DNA of 64,000 nt. It comes from a virus. A program made the position numbers and the translations under genes. Every line of letters begins with the position of its first letter. Within the stretch, counting starts at the first letter, position 1. The notes under the pieces are model-generated. The model had not been told where the DNA came from and searched no databases. It worked only from the letters and a program-made list of their open reading frames with translations. Shown here piece by piece: positions 2-59,392 of the stretch. Location: the IMG/VR virus record IMGVR_UViG_3300032562_000005. One strand, given 5' to 3'.

Positions 2-526
2 AATGGTATCAGCATTACTTGTGCCATATATACTAGCAACTACAGAATTATATGTTCCACCAGCAGTAGTAGCTGTGAAGTTATTTCCTGTACCTAATAA
101 ATTAATATTTAAATTAGAATAATTGCCAGTTTGTGTTACTGCGATATTATTACTTGCGCTAGTATCAGAGCCATCGTTATTACTATTAATAACAGCGGTA
201 GCATTATTACCTGTTACAGAGTAACTATAATTGTTACCGGTTAATCCATTAGCTACACTTGTTTGTATTCCAAATTGTAATGTATTACCAGTACCAATTT
301 GACTAACTGATACGATATTATTGTTACCAACAATAACGGCTGGCGTGGTAGCACTTGTACCTGTGCCTTGTACGCCTTCTACTGCGTTTCCTGCGCCATC
401 TTGTGTAACAGAAATACTACTGTTACCTCCTGATTGATTAATGTAGATGGTATTATCAGCACCAAACACATTTAAACTTGCTACAGCTAGCATTGTTATT
501 ATTGTTTTCGCTAGGTTTATTTTCAT
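2..526 (-). CDS. Curlin-repeat (CsgA/CsgB-like) secreted protein, truncated by window edge; absent from ORF track
   Basis: Manual translation: MKINLAKTIITMLAVASLNVFGA signal peptide, then N/G/T/S-rich repeats with Q-x-G-x-x-N type units (IYINQSGGNS, VTQDGAGN, VSQIGTGN, VTQTGNYS); directly downstream of csgG. Confidence 0.75.
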   Translation of the reverse strand, partial: MKINLAKTIITMLAVASLNVFGADNTIYINQSGGNSSISVTQDGAGNAVEGVQGTGTSATTPAVIVGNNNIVSVSQIGTGNTLQFGIQTSVANGLTGNNYSYSVTGNNATAVINSNNDGSDTSASNNIAVTQTGNYSNLNINLLGTGNNFTATTAGGTYNSVVASIYGTSNADTI

Positions 527-553
527 TTTACTTCTTCCTTTGGTCTTAGACCA

Positions 554-1516
554 TTATTTTACAATTCCTATTTTTGCCTCTACATCTGCTGGTAAACTCG
601 GATTTTTAGACATACCGAGTGGAATTGTTGCGGTGCCGTTTGCTTCTGGATTTGGAACTACTGGTGCTACTTGGACATAATCCCAAACACCTTTGCGTTG
701 CCCTTCTTTAATTAATTCTACTACACTTGATTCAATAGTTGTTTTAAGTGCTATTGTTGTAGCTTCGTTAATTGTTAATCCAGATTCAAATTGAAATATT
801 GCTGCTGCCGCATCTGTTGCGCCGTTGTTACTAGCGCCTACTTGTTTAACTATACTGCTTATGCCACCTGGATCAATACTTTTAAAAATGGCAATACTAT
901 CTGCGGTACTGTAAACAATCTTTGTAACGGTTACCGACGCTAAGATTTTACCAGTGTTTACACTTACTGCTCGTAAACTAATTGTAATAATATCTTTACT
1001 GTATTGAGTCGATGGGCCAATACCTAGGAAATTATATCCAATGCCCCCTGACTCTAACCCAGTGTCGTAACCAATAATCCCACCTTCAATAATAACTCCA
1101 GCAAATTGTAGTGGCATTAATTTCTGTGCGTCTTTACCTTCATAGGCTTGGCGCATCTGTGTAATAATTAATCTTTCTTTAGTAAGCGCATCAATATTAC
1201 CGCGCTCGACTACTTCAAACCATTGACCTTTACCTACATCTTGTAAGGCACGAATCAGTAAAGCATCTCCGCCTTGTGTAACCGCTGTACTAAAACTAGC
1301 AATACCCGGAACGGCTTTACGCTGTCCAGTTTTATCAGCGAACTGATATACTGCTACAGTAAGTTTGCCTTTGGCTGGAGGAGGTACAGCATCAAATTCT
1401 TTTTGTAGTTCATTTTTAGGAATTTGCGGTTTATGATCCGGGACACCAATTTTCTGGCCTATAGCACAACCAGATAACATAACGATTAAGACTAATGTAG
1501 GAAATAATTTACGCAT
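554..1516 (-). CDS. csgG: Curli secretion channel CsgG (outer-membrane lipoprotein)
   Basis: Lipobox MLSGC; VAVYQFADKTGQRK, FSTAVTQGG, WFEVVER, IIEGGIIGYD motifs. Confidence 0.93.
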   Translation of the reverse strand: MRKLFPTLVLIVMLSGCAIGQKIGVPDHKPQIPKNELQKEFDAVPPPAKGKLTVAVYQFADKTGQRKAVPGIASFSTAVTQGGDALLIRALQDVGKGQWFEVVERGNIDALTKERLIITQMRQAYEGKDAQKLMPLQFAGVIIEGGIIGYDTGLESGGIGYNFLGIGPSTQYSKDIITISLRAVSVNTGKILASVTVTKIVYSTADSIAIFKSIDPGGISSIVKQVGASNNGATDAAAAIFQFESGLTINEATTIALKTTIESSVVELIKEGQRKGVWDYVQVAPVVPNPEANGTATIPLGMSKNPSLPADVEAKIGIVK

Positions 1517-1983
1517 TATTGACCGCTTCCTGTGATATTAAATGAGCCAAGCGGAACATTAATTGTAGTAATATTTCCTACATTGTCTGTTACTTGAAGT
1601 TGAATTACCGATCCAGTATTAGTCCAGAAAATTGTATTGCCTTGAAAATTCATTTGTCCGCTAGTAGAGCTTCCACCGGCAAACATAGCTGTAGCTAAAT
1701 TTTGACTAATCTGTGCGTAAATGCGAGATTCAAGATTAGTTAAAAATTGATTGATTGGTGTGTTAGCGGCGTCAGCTTTTGCTTGGGCTTGGGCTGCAAT
1801 TAGAGCCTGTTGAATTGCCTGTGAACGAGCATATTGTTCGTTTTCTAAAGCCATTTGAAATGAGCCGTAACCGTTTCCGTTAAGACTTGGGCTTTTAAAT
1901 TGATAATCCGCTATAGGCGTTGCGACGGCTTGTAAGGAGATCGCAGATAAACATAGCAGAGTCGTTCTTATTATTATTTTCAT
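1516..1983 (-). CDS. csgF: Curli assembly component CsgF
   Basis: Signal peptide; YQFKSPSLNGNG N-terminal motif; FLTNLESRIYAQIS; C-terminal TTINVP; adjacent to csgG. Confidence 0.85.
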   Translation of the reverse strand: MKIIIRTTLLCLSAISLQAVATPIADYQFKSPSLNGNGYGSFQMALENEQYARSQAIQQALIAAQAQAKADAANTPINQFLTNLESRIYAQISQNLATAMFAGGSSTSGQMNFQGNTIFWTNTGSVIQLQVTDNVGNITTINVPLGSFNITGSGQ

Positions 1984-2000
1984 ACTCTCGCTCCTACTAT

Positions 2001-2006
2001 TATTTA
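2001..2006 (-). promoter_or_regulatory. T4-like late promoter core TAAATA upstream of csgF
   Basis: Same hexamer precedes many virion genes in this window. Confidence 0.6.
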
Positions 2007-2454: not shown

Positions 2455-3243
2455 ATGATATTCAACTTTGATTTAATTTCCGACATCCACAGAGAAACTT
2501 GGGCAAACTTTGATTGGGAAGGTCAACCGACTGCGCCATATTGTATTGTAGCAGGTGATATAGCAAGAGACCGAGCATTAGTAATAGATACCTTAGAACA
2601 ACTTAGCGAAGTATATCAAGGAGTGTTTTACATTGACGGTAATGATGAACATAAAGATTACGGCGAAGATTTAGGTCGTAGTTATGCTGAATTAAATGAT
2701 TTAATAAAAGCAATGCCCAAGGTTGTGTATATGCAAGACAATGTTGTAATCATAAATGGTATTGCTATTGTAGCAACAAATGGGTGGTGGACTTACGACT
2801 TTGATTGTAACTTAGAATTAGATCAATCAATACAGTGGGTACAACAGAAAGATAGTATTACACAGGAAGCGGCGATAAACATCAATGGTGTAGGGTACAA
2901 CGATGCGGGATACATGGCAAATGGTGTACAAAAATTACAAGCCCACAGGGATGTCAAAGCAATCATCATGGTAACGCATACCGTGCCCCGAGCAGAAATT
3001 ATCGAACATGATTTAGAATTAATTGATACTTGGCGATTTAACTCTATGGGCAATAGTCATATGACTAATGCGTTACGAGAAGACTTAGAGCATAAAGTTA
3101 AACTTTGGTGTTTTGGTCATTATCATAGACCAGTTGATACTATAATCGATGGTATTAGATATGTTAGCAATCCTCGGGGAAGAGGCGATACTCAATATTC
3201 TCAAGTGGCCTACTATCCCAAAAGAATTAGCGTAAAAATTTAA
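2455..3243 (+). CDS. Calcineurin-like metallophosphoesterase
   Basis: SDIH, AGD, GNDEH, THT, FGHYH metal-binding motifs. Confidence 0.9.
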   Translation: MIFNFDLISDIHRETWANFDWEGQPTAPYCIVAGDIARDRALVIDTLEQLSEVYQGVFYIDGNDEHKDYGEDLGRSYAELNDLIKAMPKVVYMQDNVVIINGIAIVATNGWWTYDFDCNLELDQSIQWVQQKDSITQEAAININGVGYNDAGYMANGVQKLQAHRDVKAIIMVTHTVPRAEIIEHDLELIDTWRFNSMGNSHMTNALREDLEHKVKLWCFGHYHRPVDTIIDGIRYVSNPRGRGDTQYSQVAYYPKRISVKI

Positions 3244-3548
3244 ACAGTTTCTGGTTCTAGTTTAATCTGTAACGGCATATCTTGTGACCGAGCACAAACT
3301 GTAACTTCAATACCTTTTTGTTCAGCTACTTCGTATGGCAATACTGCTACTACTGCTGATCCAGCTTCGTGAATATCTTGAGTAATCTTTACCGCAGAGT
3401 CTGGTGTGTAATCAAAAAAGTTCATTAAAGATTCGATAACAAATTCCATAGTTGTGCCGGTATCATTTAAATAGATAACTTTAAACATAGGTGGTTCTTT
3501 AAGTTCATTATTAACTTGTATTTGTGTAACGATATCTGCTTGTGACAT
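3240..3548 (-). CDS. clpS: ATP-dependent Clp protease adaptor ClpS
   Basis: PPMFKVIYLND..TTMEFV, IHEAGSAVV, YEVAEQK, PLQIKLE. Confidence 0.92.
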   Translation of the reverse strand: MSQADIVTQIQVNNELKEPPMFKVIYLNDTGTTMEFVIESLMNFFDYTPDSAVKITQDIHEAGSAVVAVLPYEVAEQKGIEVTVCARSQDMPLQIKLEPETV

Positions 3549-3609
3549 ACTATTCCTTTGTTTTTAGTAGGGGGCATAATTGCCCCCGTACTGTATTTAC
3601 TATATTATA

Positions 3610-4050
3610 TTACGATTCGTATGTAATAGCAATAGTTTTAGGCTGAAGTGCTTCAGGAATATGGCGCTCTAACTTAACCGTTAAGATACCATTCTTTACC
3701 GATGCTGTAATTACTTCTACATGATCGGCTAAACTGAATGTACGGATAAAGCGTCTGTCACTAATACCTTTGTGTGTATATTCTACACCTTCTGGTAATT
3801 CTTCTGGTAACTTTTCGCCAGTAATAACCAAATTACTATCACGAACTGCTACTTCGATTTCACCTTGAGTAAATCCAGCTACAGCCACTTGAACTTCAAA
3901 CGTGTTCTCGCCGGTTTTCAAAATGTTATATGGCGGATAGTTTTGTGTACTAGCCGTATCAATTTGATTAATAATTCGATCAAATAGTTTATCGACTCCG
4001 ATAGAGTTACGATAGAATGGGTTTAAATCTAATGCTGTGAGTTTAGTCAT
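3610..4050 (-). CDS. ibpA: Small heat-shock protein (Hsp20/IbpA family)
   Basis: NYPPYNI, AVAGF, HKGISDRRF, NGIL, PEALQP. Confidence 0.95.
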   Translation of the reverse strand: MTKLTALDLNPFYRNSIGVDKLFDRIINQIDTASTQNYPPYNILKTGENTFEVQVAVAGFTQGEIEVAVRDSNLVITGEKLPEELPEGVEYTHKGISDRRFIRTFSLADHVEVITASVKNGILTVKLERHIPEALQPKTIAITYES

Positions 4051-4110
4051 TTTATTCTCCTTAATTAAGCAAGACTAATGTGTGGGCCCGACTATCGGCA
4101 CCCACACTAT
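4051..4110 (-). promoter_or_regulatory. ROSE-like RNA thermometer in ibpA leader
   Basis: mRNA: GUGUGGG..CCCACAC hairpin, then UCUUGCUU-AAUU-AAGGAGA (UUGCU with bulged G pairing the SD). Confidence 0.7.
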
Positions 4111-4115
4111 TTTTA

Positions 4116-6014
4116 CTACTTTTCAGTAAAGTCAGCGTCTACGACATTGTCGTCATCGGCTGGCTTAGCTGACTCTTGTGGCTCAGCAGCAGGTTGTGCT
4201 GCTTGTGCCTTTGCTTCTTGAATAGCCTGCGAGGCTGTTATTAAAGCGGTTACTGCCTTTTGGATTTCGTCCCTATCAGTACCTTTGACTGCTTCTTCTA
4301 CAGCCTTGATAGCTGTGTTGATATCGTCAATTTGTGTACCGCTAAGGCTACTGCTAGTTTCATCTAGGTCCTTACGGATCTCGTGTACCATAGCATCAGC
4401 AGAGTTGCGAGCTTGGATGAGTTCAACTTGTTTCTTATCATCTTCCGCATTAGCTTCTGCTTCTTTAATCATCTTTTGAATTTCATCATCTGACAATCCT
4501 GAGTTTGCTTTAATAGTAATCTTGTTTTCTTTGCCTGTGGTTTTATCCTTGGCTTTAACACTTAAGATACCATTTGCGTCAATATCAAGCTCAACGTCAA
4601 TTTGTGGTTGACCTCGGCGTTGTGGCTGGATGCCTTCTAAACTAAACTCGCCTAAGAGTTTATTGTAAGAGCATAACTCGCGCTCGCCTTGATAAACTTT
4701 AATTGTAACTGCTGGTTGGTTATCTTCGGCAGTACTAAACACTTGATTAGCCTTAGTAGGAATCGTAGTGTTCTTTTTAATCAACTTAGTCATTACACCG
4801 CCCATAGTTTCAATGCCTAATGACAATGGGGTAACATCAAGTAACAATACGTCTGTACGGTCGCCGCCTAATACAGCACCTTGAATAGCCGCACCAGCCG
4901 CTACTGCTTCGTCTGGATTAACATCTTTGCGTGGTGCTTTACCAAACAGCTTCTCAACTGTTTCTTGTACTTTAGGCATACGAGTCATGCCACCAACAAG
5001 AATAACCTCGTCGATATCGCTGTTACTTACACCCGCATCAGACATGGCAGTCTTACATGGGCCTACGGAACGTTGAATCAATTCATCAACTAAACTTTCA
5101 AATTTAGCACGAGAGATGGTAACATTCAAATGCTTAGGACCACTTGCGTCTGCTGTAACATATGGTAAGTTAACAGTAGTAGACTGTGCTGAAGACAATT
5201 CAATCTTAGCTTTTTCTGCGGCATCTTTCAAACGCTGTAATGCTAACACATCACTTTTAAGGTCACATCCAGATTCTTTCTTAAACTCATCACAGAGGTA
5301 ATCCATAATGCGTTGGTCAAAGTCTTCGCCGCCCAAGAATGTATCGCCGTTAGTTGACAATACTTCAATCTGCTTGTCGCCATCCACATTGGCAATTTCG
5401 ATAATGGACACATCAAATGTACCACCACCTAAGTCATACACGGCAATTTTACGATCCTTAGTACTTGCTTTATCAACGCCATATGCTAGTGCGGCCGCTG
5501 TTGGCTCGTTGATAATGCGTAGAACTTCTAAGCCCGCAATTTTACCTGCGTCTTTGGTAGCTTGTCTTTGGCTGTCATTGAAGTATGCTGGTACAGTGAT
5601 AACGGCTTGTGTAACTGTCTCACCTAAATAGTCTTCGGCAGTTTTTTTCATCTTACGCAATACTTCAGCAGATACTTGTGGTGGTGCCAAATCTTGGCCA
5701 TTTGCTTGAATCCAAGCATCACCATTATCAGCTTCGATAATTTTGTAAGGCATCAAGTTGATGTCTTTTTGTACAGCTTCTTCTTTAAATTTACGACCAA
5801 TCAAACGCTTTGCAGCATAGATTGTGTTCGATGGGTTTGTAACTGATTGGCGTTTAGCTGTAGCACCAACTAATACTTCGTCGGCTGTATAGGCGACAAT
5901 ACTTGGTGTAGTTCTAGCACCTTCTGCGTTTTCAATTACTTTTGGAATGTTATTTTCGATTACGGAAACACAGGAATTTGTAGTTCCCAAATCTATGCCG
6001 ATGATTTTGCTCAT
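4116..6014 (-). CDS. dnaK: Chaperone DnaK (Hsp70)
   Basis: [33 protein letters not shown]-terminal VVDADFTE. Confidence 0.98.
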
Positions 6015-6084
6015 GTTGTTTTCTCCTTTAATTAAGCAAGTAACTTCTTACGAACCCAAACTACGGCATTCGTAGAAGTATTTA
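6015..6084 (-). promoter_or_regulatory. Late promoter (TAAATA 6079-6084) plus ROSE-like thermometer in dnaK leader
   Basis: mRNA: ACUUCUACGAA..UUCGUAAGAAGU hairpin then CUUGCUU-AAUUA-AAGGAG; same architecture as ibpA leader. Confidence 0.65.
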
Positions 6085-6126
6085 TGGTACTACAAAATCA
6101 TTATATACAAATATTATTCGGTTAAG

Positions 6127-6489
6127 TTAAGCATTTCTGATAACCAGTTTAGCTTTAATTTTAGTAGGGCTAAAATGTTTCTTTACTACCTTTTCTGCCG
6201 TTTTTGGATTAAACTTTTTACAGCTAAACACATCAATGTATGCCGTTCTATCTTGATCCATAAAGTGTCCAGTAATGTTACTAGTTTGTATTAGCTGAAC
6301 TAAACTGTATCCACTGTTTGGATGTCCATCGAGCAAATACTTAATTACTGGTTTGCCCACTGCTTCCATTTTAATTTGCTCTACCAAGTCTTTGATAAAC
6401 TCTTTTAATTTAGCTTTACTATTGATATTGTCATTCATGCCTTGGCAATCCAGCATTAGGTGGTAACCCCATGGTTTGATTTTTTTCAT
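6127..6489 (-). CDS. S-adenosylmethionine decarboxylase-family proenzyme (pyruvoyl)
   Basis: GYHLMLDC, GYSLVQLIQTSNITGHF (autocleavage region), AYIDVFSCK.F. Confidence 0.85.
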   Translation of the reverse strand: MKKIKPWGYHLMLDCQGMNDNINSKAKLKEFIKDLVEQIKMEAVGKPVIKYLLDGHPNSGYSLVQLIQTSNITGHFMDQDRTAYIDVFSCKKFNPKTAEKVVKKHFSPTKIKAKLVIRNA

Positions 6490-6711
6490 TTAAAATAATT
6501 TTTTAGGTAATTGTTGATCGCGGAGTTTTTTGCGCCATCTAGCTTTGGCAGCGCCTTTTTTACGCTTGCGTTCAGTAGTTGGTTTTTCGTAAGTTTCACG
6601 GGCACGAAGGTCATCAAGTAATCCAGATTCCTGGACTTTCTTTTTGAATTTTCTGAGGGCTTTTTCGACGTTGCCGTCTTTAACTAATACCCCTTTACCG
6701 TAATACGTCAT
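6490..6711 (-). CDS. rpsU: Ribosomal protein bS21
   Basis: [15 protein letters not shown]....[25 protein letters not shown]. Confidence 0.95.
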
Positions 6712-7898
6712 TCATTCTCCTGAGCAAGTGTTCTAGGAGTATTTACTAGATTTGACGTAATTGAGACGGTTTTTATACTTTGCTTACGATAGCGTGGCAA
6801 ATCGTACATATGGGGTAGCAATATGCGTTCTAATTCAGAATGTAGGCCACGAGCCCCAGTTTTTGTTTTTAAAGTGCGTTCAGCTATAAGATCCAATGAT
6901 TCATCTTCAAAATATAGTTCTACGCCATCTTGATCAAATAGCCACTGATACTGCTCTACAAAATTGTGTTTAATATCGACTAAAATACTAATTAGCTGTT
7001 CTTTGGTCAACCCGTGTAACGATACAGAACTGCTAAAGCGACCAATAAATTCTGGAATCATGCCATACTTGACTAAATCGTCTGGAGTTACTATTTCGTT
7101 GTCTACGCTTAAATCTGTAGTAAGATTTGCCCCAAACCCCATAGCGGTTCCTTGGATACGATTTTTAACTATTTTTTCTAGTCCCACAAATGCGCCGCCA
7201 GCGATGAATAAAATATTAGTGGTGTCAACTTCTATAGTAGCTTCAGTTTTTCTGCCGCCAGTAGGGTTAATTTTAATTTTAGTACCTTCTACTAATTTAA
7301 GCAAGGCCTGCTGAACACCTTCGCCTGATACATCACGACTAACCGTAGCGGATTCGGACTTGCGAGCAATTTTATCAATCTCGTCTAGGAAGATAATGCC
7401 ACGCTGAGTGCGCTCAAGGTCATTATCAGCATTTTGATATAATCTTAAAATAACGCTATCAACATCGTCGCCGACATATCCAGCTTCAGTTAATGTAGTA
7501 GCGTCGGCTATTACGAATGGGACATTTAAATATTCTGCTAAGGTTTTTGCTAATAATGTTTTACCGGTGCCTGTCGGCCCAATCATTAATATATTAGATT
7601 TAGCAACTTCGTTGTCTGCGCTACTAATTCTTTTATAATGATTAGTAATTGCTACAGATAACACAATCTTGGCTTCGGGTTGACCAACTACATACTGGTC
7701 GAGATATTCTTTAATCTCGCGAGGATTAGGAATTTCTATTGTTGAAGAAGATTTAGCAGAATGCTTTTTATCTTTTAATAGTTTATCGCAAAAGGTTACA
7801 CATTCGCTACATATAGCAACTTCGTGTCCTACAATTAGTCTACCTACGGAACTTTTATGTTTTCCGCAAAATGAACAGTGATCAATTTTTTCTGACAT
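6708..7898 (-). CDS. clpX: ClpX AAA+ unfoldase
   Basis: CSFCGK..ICSEC Zn domain, [34 protein letters not shown] loop, TGARGL. Confidence 0.96.
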
Positions 7899-57651: not shown

Positions 57652-58268
57652 TTGTAGTTTCCTGATGGTTGTGCGCCAGTTGCTGGCTTGCGTGGACGCT
57701 TTTCTGCGTGTGTCATTGGAGAGTCATCACCTTGTGGTAACTCATTTGTTGTTTCAGCAGGCTTAGGACTTCCGCCAGCAATAGTAAAGTTGCTACGATA
57801 AGCATTTTTTAATACAGCATGGTCAAATGGATCAGCTGAATAATCTTTCTTCAATGCTTTTTGTTCTGCGTTGTCAGCAGGATAATCAGTATCGTTTAAT
57901 AATGATTCAGGTTGGTCTTCAACTTGCTTATTGATAAAGTCAACGCTGTCATCAAATACCGATGTTTGCATAATAATTTTATTTTCATCAAACCCAAGTA
58001 GTCGAGCAATTTGTTTAATTTGCGGTTCGATTGCTGGGTAGCGTAACTTAACATCAAAGCTAGTAACTTTTTGATTTTCTTGTGCTGGAAAATCGGCTGG
58101 TTTAGCTTGAATTGGAGTTGACTTATCTGCGCCAATTGACAATGGATCAAATTGGTCAAGTTTGCTTTTAAGTTTTGTGATAAATCCTGAAGGCAAATCA
58201 CCAACTACTTTGATACGATAGTTATATGTGCGCTCGGATTCTGCTAAGTAATCTTTAAAATTTTTCAT
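57648..58268 (-). CDS. Putative head protein
   Basis: MKNFKDYLAE leader; TAAATA at 58286-58291. Confidence 0.65.
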   Translation of the reverse strand: MKNFKDYLAESERTYNYRIKVVGDLPSGFITKLKSKLDQFDPLSIGADKSTPIQAKPADFPAQENQKVTSFDVKLRYPAIEPQIKQIARLLGFDENKIIMQTSVFDDSVDFINKQVEDQPESLLNDTDYPADNAEQKALKKDYSADPFDHAVLKNAYRSNFTIAGGSPKPAETTNELPQGDDSPMTHAEKRPRKPATGAQPSGNYK

Positions 58269-58293: not shown

Positions 58294-58791
58294 CTAATTG
58301 TCTTTTTGTGCTCTGTCGCTAAGTAAGCGTTCCAGCAAATCATTGCGAGTTAATACCTGTCCTTCGGCCGTAGGAATGCTGGTTAAATCCCCGGATTTTT
58401 TGGCGGCGTCTTGATCTAACTTTAACTTTTTAAGTTGCAAGTCAATCATTTTTAATTTTTTATTCAGTTTAGTAGTTTTCGCTGTTAGTGCGTGTCCCAG
58501 CATATTCCCAGCCACAGCAAACAATTCTGCGGCAAATCTACTGTCTACATTCATGCCCAAATCGGATAAATCTTGATAGCTTTGTTTGGCTAATTCTGCT
58601 ATTTCGTCTAGTTCTTTATCACTTGCTTCCAAATCACGAATAGCAGGTAATGCTTCGTCAATTTTATCTATAGTATCATCAATTTCTATGATAGCTGTGC
58701 GTGTCTCTTCTGGAGTTAGCGTTTCGCTAATAGAAGGAGCCATATTCTCTTCATCAGTAAATCCAAACAATTCTTCAAGTTTCTTAGTAAT
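58294..58791 (-). CDS. Probable terminase small subunit (gp16-like), ATT start
   Basis: AAGGAG 7 nt before ATT-ACT-AAG-AAA-CTT-GAA-GAA; helical; [10 protein letters not shown]; TRNDLL. Confidence 0.55.
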
Positions 58792-59392
58792 TTTGAGTCT
58801 CCTTTTTACATTCTTTGTGCCAGCGGGCTAAATTACCTTTGTTTGTAATAGTTCCGCATCGAGGGCAACAAACTTTTTTCTGTAATTTTGAGATTGATAT
58901 TGCTAATTCTTCAGGATTATTTTTCAAATATTCTTTTCGTGTCTTGCTCTGTTGATCTCTTAATTTAGGATCTGCCCATATTTTTGTATTTGTTTCTTTT
59001 AATAATTCACGGGTAGATATTTTTACTGTTTTATCGCGAGTTTTCCAGGCTTCGATATAACCAGCATTTGATTGTTTTGGTTTGCGACCGTTAGGTTGTG
59101 CTACGCCTTTGCGTTGTTGCGAGCGGTTTACTAATTGTTCTTGCGAGAATTTATACCCAGCTGTACCATCACCGCCGTCTGTCATATTGCGTAAAATGCC
59201 AGTGCCCAAATCTTTGCGTCCGTACCAGCTAATAAGACGGCGTTCAATAGCACAAGCACCTAAATCTGTTAAATTTTTTTCTACAATAACAATTCTATGC
59301 TCATCTGTAGGAACTTTAACATTGTGTTCCTTAGGAGTAAGTGTATCTTTGCGCAAGTAAGCATAAACATAGTAGGTTAAATCAGAATTCAT
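58784..59392 (-). mobile_element. GIY-YIG-like homing endonuclease, probably inactivated by in-frame deletion
   Basis: YYVYAYLRK...[25 protein letters not shown] but no YIGKG..R segment; CPRCG..RWH tail. Confidence 0.72.

Follow-up and report, generated by a model that had tools for sequence, protein, structure and literature searches.

A probable curli-like secretion module with a curlin-repeat gene in a freshwater jumbo myophage

We analysed a stretch of 64,000 nucleotides (nt) from the viral record IMGVR_UViG_3300032562_000005 (the window), one end of which carries csgF, csgG and a third gene, whose product is well supported as a curlin-repeat secretion substrate. We suggest that a phage-borne secretion module of type VIII (curli-like) probably has its promoter-proximal half at this end of the window, with the curlin stacking into surface fibres. 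A preliminary description of the window reported csgF-csgG and then a signal-peptide repeat gene, and all of them are found where it put them, on the minus strand. Its interpretation, a phage curli operon with its own subunit, is reasonable, but it is not a discovery, since the subunit, the missing CsgE and the ideas of aggregation and shielding have already been published (PMC9599517, PMC7029224). Thus, the window is one more example of a known phage module. The additions made here are modest: a freshwater jumbo phage as the carrier, a quantified and strict linkage of csgG to the curlin gene, a motif in the N-terminal strand of the curlin, an extra porin gene, and a bacterial locus with a FecR gene.

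In the proposed mechanism, a single transcript, probably from a late-type TAAATA promoter, would encode the translationally coupled CsgF and CsgG and then the Sec-exported curlin. CsgG, a lipoprotein, would form a channel in the outer membrane of the infected Gram-negative host, and CsgF would plug into this channel via its conserved N-terminal peptide. The curlin, which is 301 amino acids (aa) long, would pass the CsgG channel unfolded and stack end to end, giving curli-like fibres on the cell surface. Genes past the window, for a 57-aa protein, a FecR/PupR-type protein, a TorF-type porin, a second curlin-like protein and a CHASE2 cyclase, would probably regulate or report fibre assembly. The gene identities, their order, the export signals, the predicted fold and the strict linkage rest on the data given below; beyond these, we infer channel assembly in the host, CsgG-dependent export, polymerisation, the timing and a benefit to the phage. 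Candidate benefits in the literature are the aggregation of hosts ('sibling capture'), shielding against superinfection, and import (PMC7029224, PMC9599517).

The csgF, csgG and curlin genes

Together, csgF, csgG and the partial curlin gene fill bases 2-1983 of the window, all on the minus strand (Table 1). CsgF matches the whole of the Pfam model PF10614 (positions 5-132 of 132) at 52.5 bits, where the cut-off is 25.8, and its signal peptide ends in AVA. The N-terminal motif F-x-x-P-x-(F/L)-x-G-N-G is invariant among the phage homologues, with F29, P32, G36 and G38 invariant across five phage CsgFs. In E. coli, the CsgF peptide that enters the CsgG barrel reads F-x-x-P-x-F-G-G-N. The N-terminus of the phage protein aligns with this CsgG-binding segment (6l7a chain J), and E. 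coli CsgF is the top match of a five-sequence phage profile in the Protein Data Bank (PDB), yet the whole alignment has an E-value of 0.56. When CsgF alone was compared with the PDB by phmmer, only chance matches were returned.

CsgG scores 142 bits against PF03783 (cut-off 20.8). Its residues 2-215 and 241-281 align to residues 2-210 and 215-255 of E. coli CsgG (3x2r, 6l7a; E = 5.2e-39), and this alignment covers the core and the transmembrane-hairpin region. A lipobox, M-L-S-G-C, is located at residues 13-17 with Ala at +2, the outer-membrane sorting residue; the match to LPAM_1 is weak. The constriction of E. coli CsgG is made up of Tyr, Asn and Phe. In the phage protein Phe is kept, Asn is replaced by Ser and Tyr by Val, and the loop is one residue longer. 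An insertion of ~20 residues and a C-terminal tail are common to the jumbo-phage relatives. The start of csgG overlaps the stop of csgF (TAATG), which fits a 1:1 complex of CsgG and CsgF. The curlin gene begins 27 nt past csgG, and the spacer holds its ribosome-binding site together with a palindrome that may be an mRNA processing or stability element setting the ratio of subunit to channel. No run of T follows this palindrome on the coding strand.

The curlin open reading frame (ORF) begins with a signal peptide, judged by inspection, followed by a repeat region rich in N, G, T and S. Contigs L001 to L006, which have 0-1 mismatch over the shared csgG-curlin stretch, extend it to 301 aa (P0001). 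The preliminary description spoke of Q-x-G-x-x-N repeats. A degenerate curlin repeat is indeed present, but since the full protein has just three exact copies of the motif, two of these in the window, the label is a loose one. The Q-x-G arcs are invariant within the family. Against Pfam Curlin_rpt (PF07012) the full protein scores 22.5 bits in two stretches (cut-off 20.7), and the fragment in the window by itself scores 18.6 bits, under the cut-off. A family profile built from 56 sequences matches 8c50, a curli subunit of Pontibacter korlensis (E = 4.4e-16), and 8enq, the CsgA of E. coli (E = 0.0038), with no other significant match. At the mature N-terminus, the conserved strand motif A-D-N-(S/T)-I-Y-I-x-Q-x-G is present in 58 of the 74 csgG-adjacent phage curlins. 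Its orthologues are gp016 of Pelagibacter phage HTVC008M (E = 3e-9), which is annotated as a curlin of the CsgB type, and gene 101 of Methylophilales phage Melnitz (E = 9e-8).

The preliminary description expected a beta-solenoid, and the curlin is predicted to be an uncapped one with two sheets. The AlphaFold2 model, made with the 56-sequence alignment, has a predicted local distance difference test score of 80.3 and shows 23 strands, mostly 11-12 residues apart, that span residue 26 to residue 300 of 301, the last strand being 294-300. These make up ~11 strand-arc-strand units of ~23 residues each, which is the curlin period according to Sleutel et al. (PMC10192328). The first strand lies three residues past the predicted signal cleavage, the strands reach the end of the protein, and caps are absent at both ends. 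Because the modelled ends are uncapped strands, there would be nothing to block stacking. In an exhaustive structural comparison (VIA-align), the best match is 8c50_A, with Z = 17.9 and a root-mean-square deviation (rmsd) of 8.8 Å over 210 residues. The Pfam match, the family profile, the predicted fold, the structural match and the family motifs together support the identity of the curlin substrate well, in agreement with the earlier claim that the phage has its own curlin-repeat subunit.

Linkage, promoter and the cassette beyond the window

An IMG/VR scan with a CsgG alignment found at least 589 viral contigs, and the gene order was read in the best 80. In these loci csgF and csgG are always adjacent, a curlin-family gene comes directly after csgG in all 71 that have DNA beyond csgG, and a FecR gene then follows wherever the contig extends far enough. 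The same gene order is found on phage contigs of 301 kb and 369 kb, and NCBI 'Curlin associated' proteins of uncultured Caudovirales come from 369-kb contigs. In a scan of genome contigs, many metagenome-assembled genomes of unrelated taxa had low-GC contigs (0.32-0.42) with the order csgF-csgG-curlin-FecR (L093-L113), and one, 'Rhodobacteraceae bacterium Water_Bin34', had five different contigs of this phage type. These are probably mis-binned phage contigs, not host loci.

The preliminary description overlooked that the operon continues to a FecR-domain gene, a second curlin-like gene and a CHASE2 cyclase. Contig L001, from the same phage or a strain >99% identical, carries the operon past the window edge. 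After the curlin it encodes a 57-aa protein, a 372-aa FecR-domain protein, a TorF/Gcw_chp-type porin and the second curlin-like protein; several small genes follow, and then the convergent gene of a CHASE2 class III cyclase. The 56-57-aa protein of the jumbo-phage cassettes is highly conserved, with DQLMRELQKCYWF invariant, and is of no known family; Melnitz and HTVC008M have no annotated counterpart between their curlin and FecR genes. In the model of the FecR protein, residues 14-214 match the cell-surface signalling domain of PupR (6ovm_R, Z = 15.6, rmsd 2.7 Å, 135 residues). In PupR, this domain binds an outer-membrane transducer. The C-terminal six-strand domain of the FecR protein resembles only small Ig-like sandwiches (Z below 4). 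A possible ending of this protein in fibre-docking curlin repeats was dropped, as no match to the curlin family emerged from a profile-profile comparison (probability 1%). The slot of the porin gene is variable, since relatives have a PA14-domain protein or another gene in its place. The second curlin-like protein has 30% identity to the first and conserved C-terminal cysteines. The cyclase retains both metal-binding Asp residues and the substrate Lys and Arg, and the conserved Asn before Arg is changed to Ser (V-S-T-T-A-R-I-E-S vs V-N-L-T-Y-R-I-E-S in 2w01). The preliminary description proposed looking for further csg genes in the adjoining DNA; a second curlin-like gene is present there, and the small neighbouring genes of L001 have no Pfam match.

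The TAAATA hexamer reported upstream of the operon is present and behaves like a late-type element. On the coding strand, 17 of its 36 copies are in intergenic DNA, which makes up 8% of the window, and on the other strand four are intergenic; the enrichment is about 10-fold and strand-specific. TAAATA is also found, with similar spacing, before tail tube, terminase, virion structural and fibre-like genes. The octamer ahead of csgF is GTTAAATA, and the T4 late octamer is TATAAATA. Exact TATAAATA has two copies in the whole window and stands before the virion structural gene at 58268 with the same 17-nt spacing as between TAAATA and csgF. The leader TTAAATA-N-TAGGAGC-AGAGT-ATG is kept before csgF in L009 and L011, where the proteins are 50-60% identical, and the Melnitz operon starts with a similar leader, TTAAATAGTAT...AGAGTAT. 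Given the strand-specific intergenic enrichment, the placement before structural genes and the leader conserved in relatives, it is plausible that the TAAATA before csgF is a phage-specific late-type promoter. Near-consensus sigma-70 promoters (TTGACA-N17-TATAAT) precede replication-type and unknown genes, and structural genes have TAAATA instead, which suggests that this phage has two promoter classes. Between csgF and the gene upstream of it, no intrinsic terminator was found.

The window is of phage origin. Besides a large terminase, it has genes for a tail sheath and a tail tube, virion proteins, a ribonucleotide reductase, a helicase and a ligase, almost all of them in minus-strand orientation, and no tRNAs. 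The carrier phage is a jumbo myophage from freshwater, of the PA5oct type and not a pelagiphage: its terminase has 52% identity to that of the Pseudomonas jumbo phage PA5oct and 45-47% to those of other phages of 350-470 kb. Relatives of the csg locus are on contigs of 212-369 kb. A DNA search of the csg region against 50,697 phage records gave zero matches, so a sequenced close isolate of this phage is absent among them. Identical or near-identical contigs are present in several JGI, ENA and SRA metagenomes.

Among the neighbouring genes, a metallophosphoesterase gene is located ~470 nt upstream of the csg operon on the opposite strand, with a 116-aa gene between. It is conceivable that its product is the cyclic-nucleotide phosphodiesterase partner of the CHASE2 cyclase. 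A host-like proteostasis and auxiliary cluster comes next, and its Hsp20-ClpS-S21 neighbourhood also adjoins the csg cassette in the 369-kb relative L009. A homing-endonuclease-like ORF lies among the tail and virion genes.

Table 1. Features of the window and of the cassette beyond it. Positions are those of the window unless a contig is named.
Feature	Position	Strand	Remarks
TAAATA hexamer, candidate late-type promoter core	2006..2001	-	17 nt before csgF ATG
AGGAG ribosome-binding site of csgF	1995..1991	-	read from sequence; conserved in L009 and L011
csgF, 155 aa	1983..1516	-	PF10614, E 7.5e-14; extracellular cap/adaptor of the CsgG channel
csgG, 320 aa	1516..554	-	PF03783, E 2.1e-41; type VIII secretion outer-membrane lipoprotein channel
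Palindrome TGGTCT-A-AGACCA, 13 nt	541-553		5-bp stem, 3-nt loop; in the 27-nt csgG-curlin spacer
Curlin-repeat subunit gene, first 175 of 301 codons	526..2	-	remainder past base 1 of the window
56-57-aa protein	L001:2375-2548, L009:8906-9079, L011:9020-9190		no export signal; between curlin and FecR genes
TorF/Gcw_chp-family putative outer-membrane porin	L001:3683-4369		E 1e-22; between FecR and second curlin-like genes
CHASE2 class III cyclase	L001:7427-9475	-	
Calcineurin-like metallophosphoesterase gene	2455-3243	+	weak Pfam matches, E about 1e-4
Host-like proteostasis/auxiliary cluster	3240-7898	-	ClpS, Hsp20, DnaK (632 aa), AdoMet decarboxylase, ribosomal protein S21, ClpX
Sigma-70-type promoters	upstream of starts 14015, 24973, 26189, 35424, 42864, 44359	-	
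202-aa ORF among tail/virion genes	58784-59392	-	C-terminal half homing-endonuclease-like, PHROG 655, E 2e-6

Surface fibres and the alternatives

Several points weigh against fibre formation. To our knowledge, fibres have been experimentally demonstrated for no phage module. CsgE, the periplasmic gating factor, makes curli export efficient in E. coli. The preliminary description saw no csgE, and PF10627 indeed had no match in four related jumbo-phage records, of which three are at least 92% complete, with a positive E. coli control; the small neighbours in the window and L001 have no Pfam match. The Pfam score of the curlin barely exceeds the cut-off, and the phage CsgG retains a single one of the three constriction residues of E. 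coli. Structurally, generic beta-helices are near as good as curli (Z 15-16 vs 17.9), and a Foldseek search of the PDB with the curlin model returned nothing significant at E 0.001 or better. As for late expression, the octamer before csgF differs from the T4 consensus, and clpS and dnaK are also preceded by TAAATA. Finally, Melnitz-infected cultures showed no clumping in cytograms or by transmission electron microscopy (Buchholz et al., PMC9004378).

Melnitz without fibres or clumping, degenerate repeats with three exact Q-x-G-x-x-N motifs and the many non-amyloid beta-helices that match the model nearly as well as curli would suit a curlin that is exported via CsgG and stays a monomeric coat or adhesin, masking receptors or binding particles. 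We regard this as unlikely: the model has no cap at either end, neither the Q-x-G arcs nor the motif of the N-terminal strand vary within the family, and there is homology at the sequence level to fibre-forming curlins of known structure. CsgG and CsgF could also act as a pore only, that is, as an uptake channel or a pinholin- or secretin-like lysis trigger to which the repeat proteins are incidental. Buchholz et al. 2022 (PMC9004378) argued that the subunits are missing in Melnitz and proposed a lysis pore, and the channel might be ungated without CsgE (PMC9599517). However, the Melnitz proposal rested on missing csgA and csgB and is contradicted by the annotated, orthologous curlin genes; moreover, a curlin gene follows csgG at all 71 phage loci and CsgF is always present, which leaves a pore-only role very unlikely. 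A virion role for the repeat protein, as a structural fibre of the tail or head, is hardly tenable. The structural matches do include beta-helical tailspikes, but the protein carries a cleavable Sec signal peptide, and its gene, in the csg operon, has chaperone and auxiliary genes around it and is 47 kb away from the structural block.

A different role is suggested by the genes beyond the curlin. The curlin solenoids with CsgG and CsgF could be the outer part of a trans-envelope sensor, where the FecR/PupR-type protein would pass the state of the channel or fibre to the CHASE2 cyclase, and the cyclic nucleotide would tune phage development, for example the timing of lysis. Modules of both marine and freshwater phages retain the FecR and CHASE2-cyclase genes, the FecR model has the PupR match described above, bacterial operons pair FecR-domain proteins with CHASE2 sensors (PMC5192318), and the cyclase retains its two metal-binding Asp residues, Lys and Arg. 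Yet in this phage the cyclase gene is 5 kb away on the opposite strand, one catalytic Asn of the enzyme is Ser, and the bacterial curli locus described below has a FecR gene and no cyclase nearby. Such a sensor would be compatible with fibres and does not exclude them, and we give it a small chance of being the function of the module. A broader version, which we consider quite improbable, makes the curli channel and fibre no end in themselves but the outer arm of a sensory pathway built by the phage: the PupR/FecR domain would couple CsgG or the assembly of the fibre to the CHASE2 cyclase, events at the surface such as cell contact or superinfecting phages would give a cyclic-nucleotide signal that times lysis, and the whole cassette, promoter and leader included, would have passed between the unrelated lineages of marine T4-like phages, podophages and freshwater jumbo phages. 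Stacking of the exported curlin into surface fibres is the reading that we consider probable.

Phage curli modules are abundant, as the IMG/VR scan shows, and a published estimate puts them at ~0.1% of assembled ocean viral proteins. They would give hosts that have no curli a new surface structure during infection. The presence of the cassette, including the subunit gene, in freshwater jumbo myophages offers a wider range of hosts and lineages in which this can be asked, and the findings run counter to two published statements, one that the cassette is missing from freshwater relatives and the other that subunit genes are missing from Melnitz. No new question is opened, and the old one is made no easier to test, because this phage is uncultured.

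Comparison with known systems

Much of the module is already on record. In GenBank, gp014-016 of HTVC008M are CsgF, CsgG and 'curlin minor subunit CsgB', and the Melnitz record has two 'curlin associated repeat' proteins, a FecR protein and a cyclase. The operon was described by Zaragoza-Solas et al. 2020 (PMC7029224), who proposed 'sibling capture'. Wittmers et al. 2022 (PMC9599517) reported CsgA/B-type genes, FecR and adenylate cyclase beside csgFG in podo- and myo-pelagiphages, noted that CsgE is missing, and proposed superinfection shielding, aggregation and import; genes of the module are expressed in ocean metatranscriptomes (PMC9599517).

The module of this phage shares its gene order, csgF, csgG, curlin, FecR-domain protein, second curlin-like protein and class III cyclase, with the pelagiphage module (HTVC008M gp014-gp019, Melnitz genes 99-104, HTVC023P-type podophages; PMC9599517, PMC7029224), and CsgE is absent in both. 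Identity to the pelagiphage orthologues is 36-40% for CsgG, 35-36% for CsgF and 35-38% for the FecR protein, and the N-terminus of the curlin aligns. The carriers differ, with a freshwater jumbo myophage here and marine T4-like or podovirus phages there. Unlike its pelagiphage counterpart, the CsgG of this phage has the ~20-residue insertion and the C-terminal tail, and its curlin has 301 aa vs 228-239 aa. The conserved 57-aa gene and the TorF-type porin gene are inserted in this phage, and the cyclase gene of this strain is on the opposite strand.

A bacterial counterpart is found in Candidatus Salivita marina (Gammaproteobacteria), where L109:5030-11093 encodes a curlin, CsgF, CsgG, a 452-aa protein, a curlin-like protein and a FecR-domain protein with 27% identity to the phage FecR protein over 277 residues (E = 4e-17). 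This locus is chromosomal, on a 773-kb contig with a GC content of 61% and housekeeping genes on its flanks; its CsgF is short and, unlike in the phage module, there is no cyclase within 4 kb. Since a chromosomal curli locus has a homologous FecR gene, FecR probably belongs to a bacterial variant of curli rather than being an invention of phages. The locus also qualifies the published statement that bacterial type VIII secretion operons exclude FecR.

With the curli of E. coli and Salmonella (csgBAC, csgDEFG), the phage module shares the CsgG lipoprotein channel, the channel-binding motif at the N-terminus of CsgF, and a Sec-exported curlin-repeat subunit with a two-sheet beta-solenoid, predicted in the phage case. 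In contrast to these bacteria, the phage has no CsgE, CsgC or CsgD, and its subunit gene is directly after csgG in the same operon. The phage subunit has ~11 degenerate repeats instead of 5 and is without the Gly-rich N22 targeting segment, and Phe alone is conserved of the Tyr/Asn/Phe constriction. The FecR, cyclase and porin genes are additions of the phage module relative to these curli systems. The closest known structure is that of Pontibacter korlensis CsgA R15.5 (8c50; Sleutel et al. 2023, PMC10192328). The repeats of this protein are regular and centrosymmetric, whereas the phage repeats are of the degenerate class and superpose with the high rmsd given above. Like the phage curlin, it is a long multi-repeat curlin, and it is the best match of the phage protein by both sequence profile and structure.

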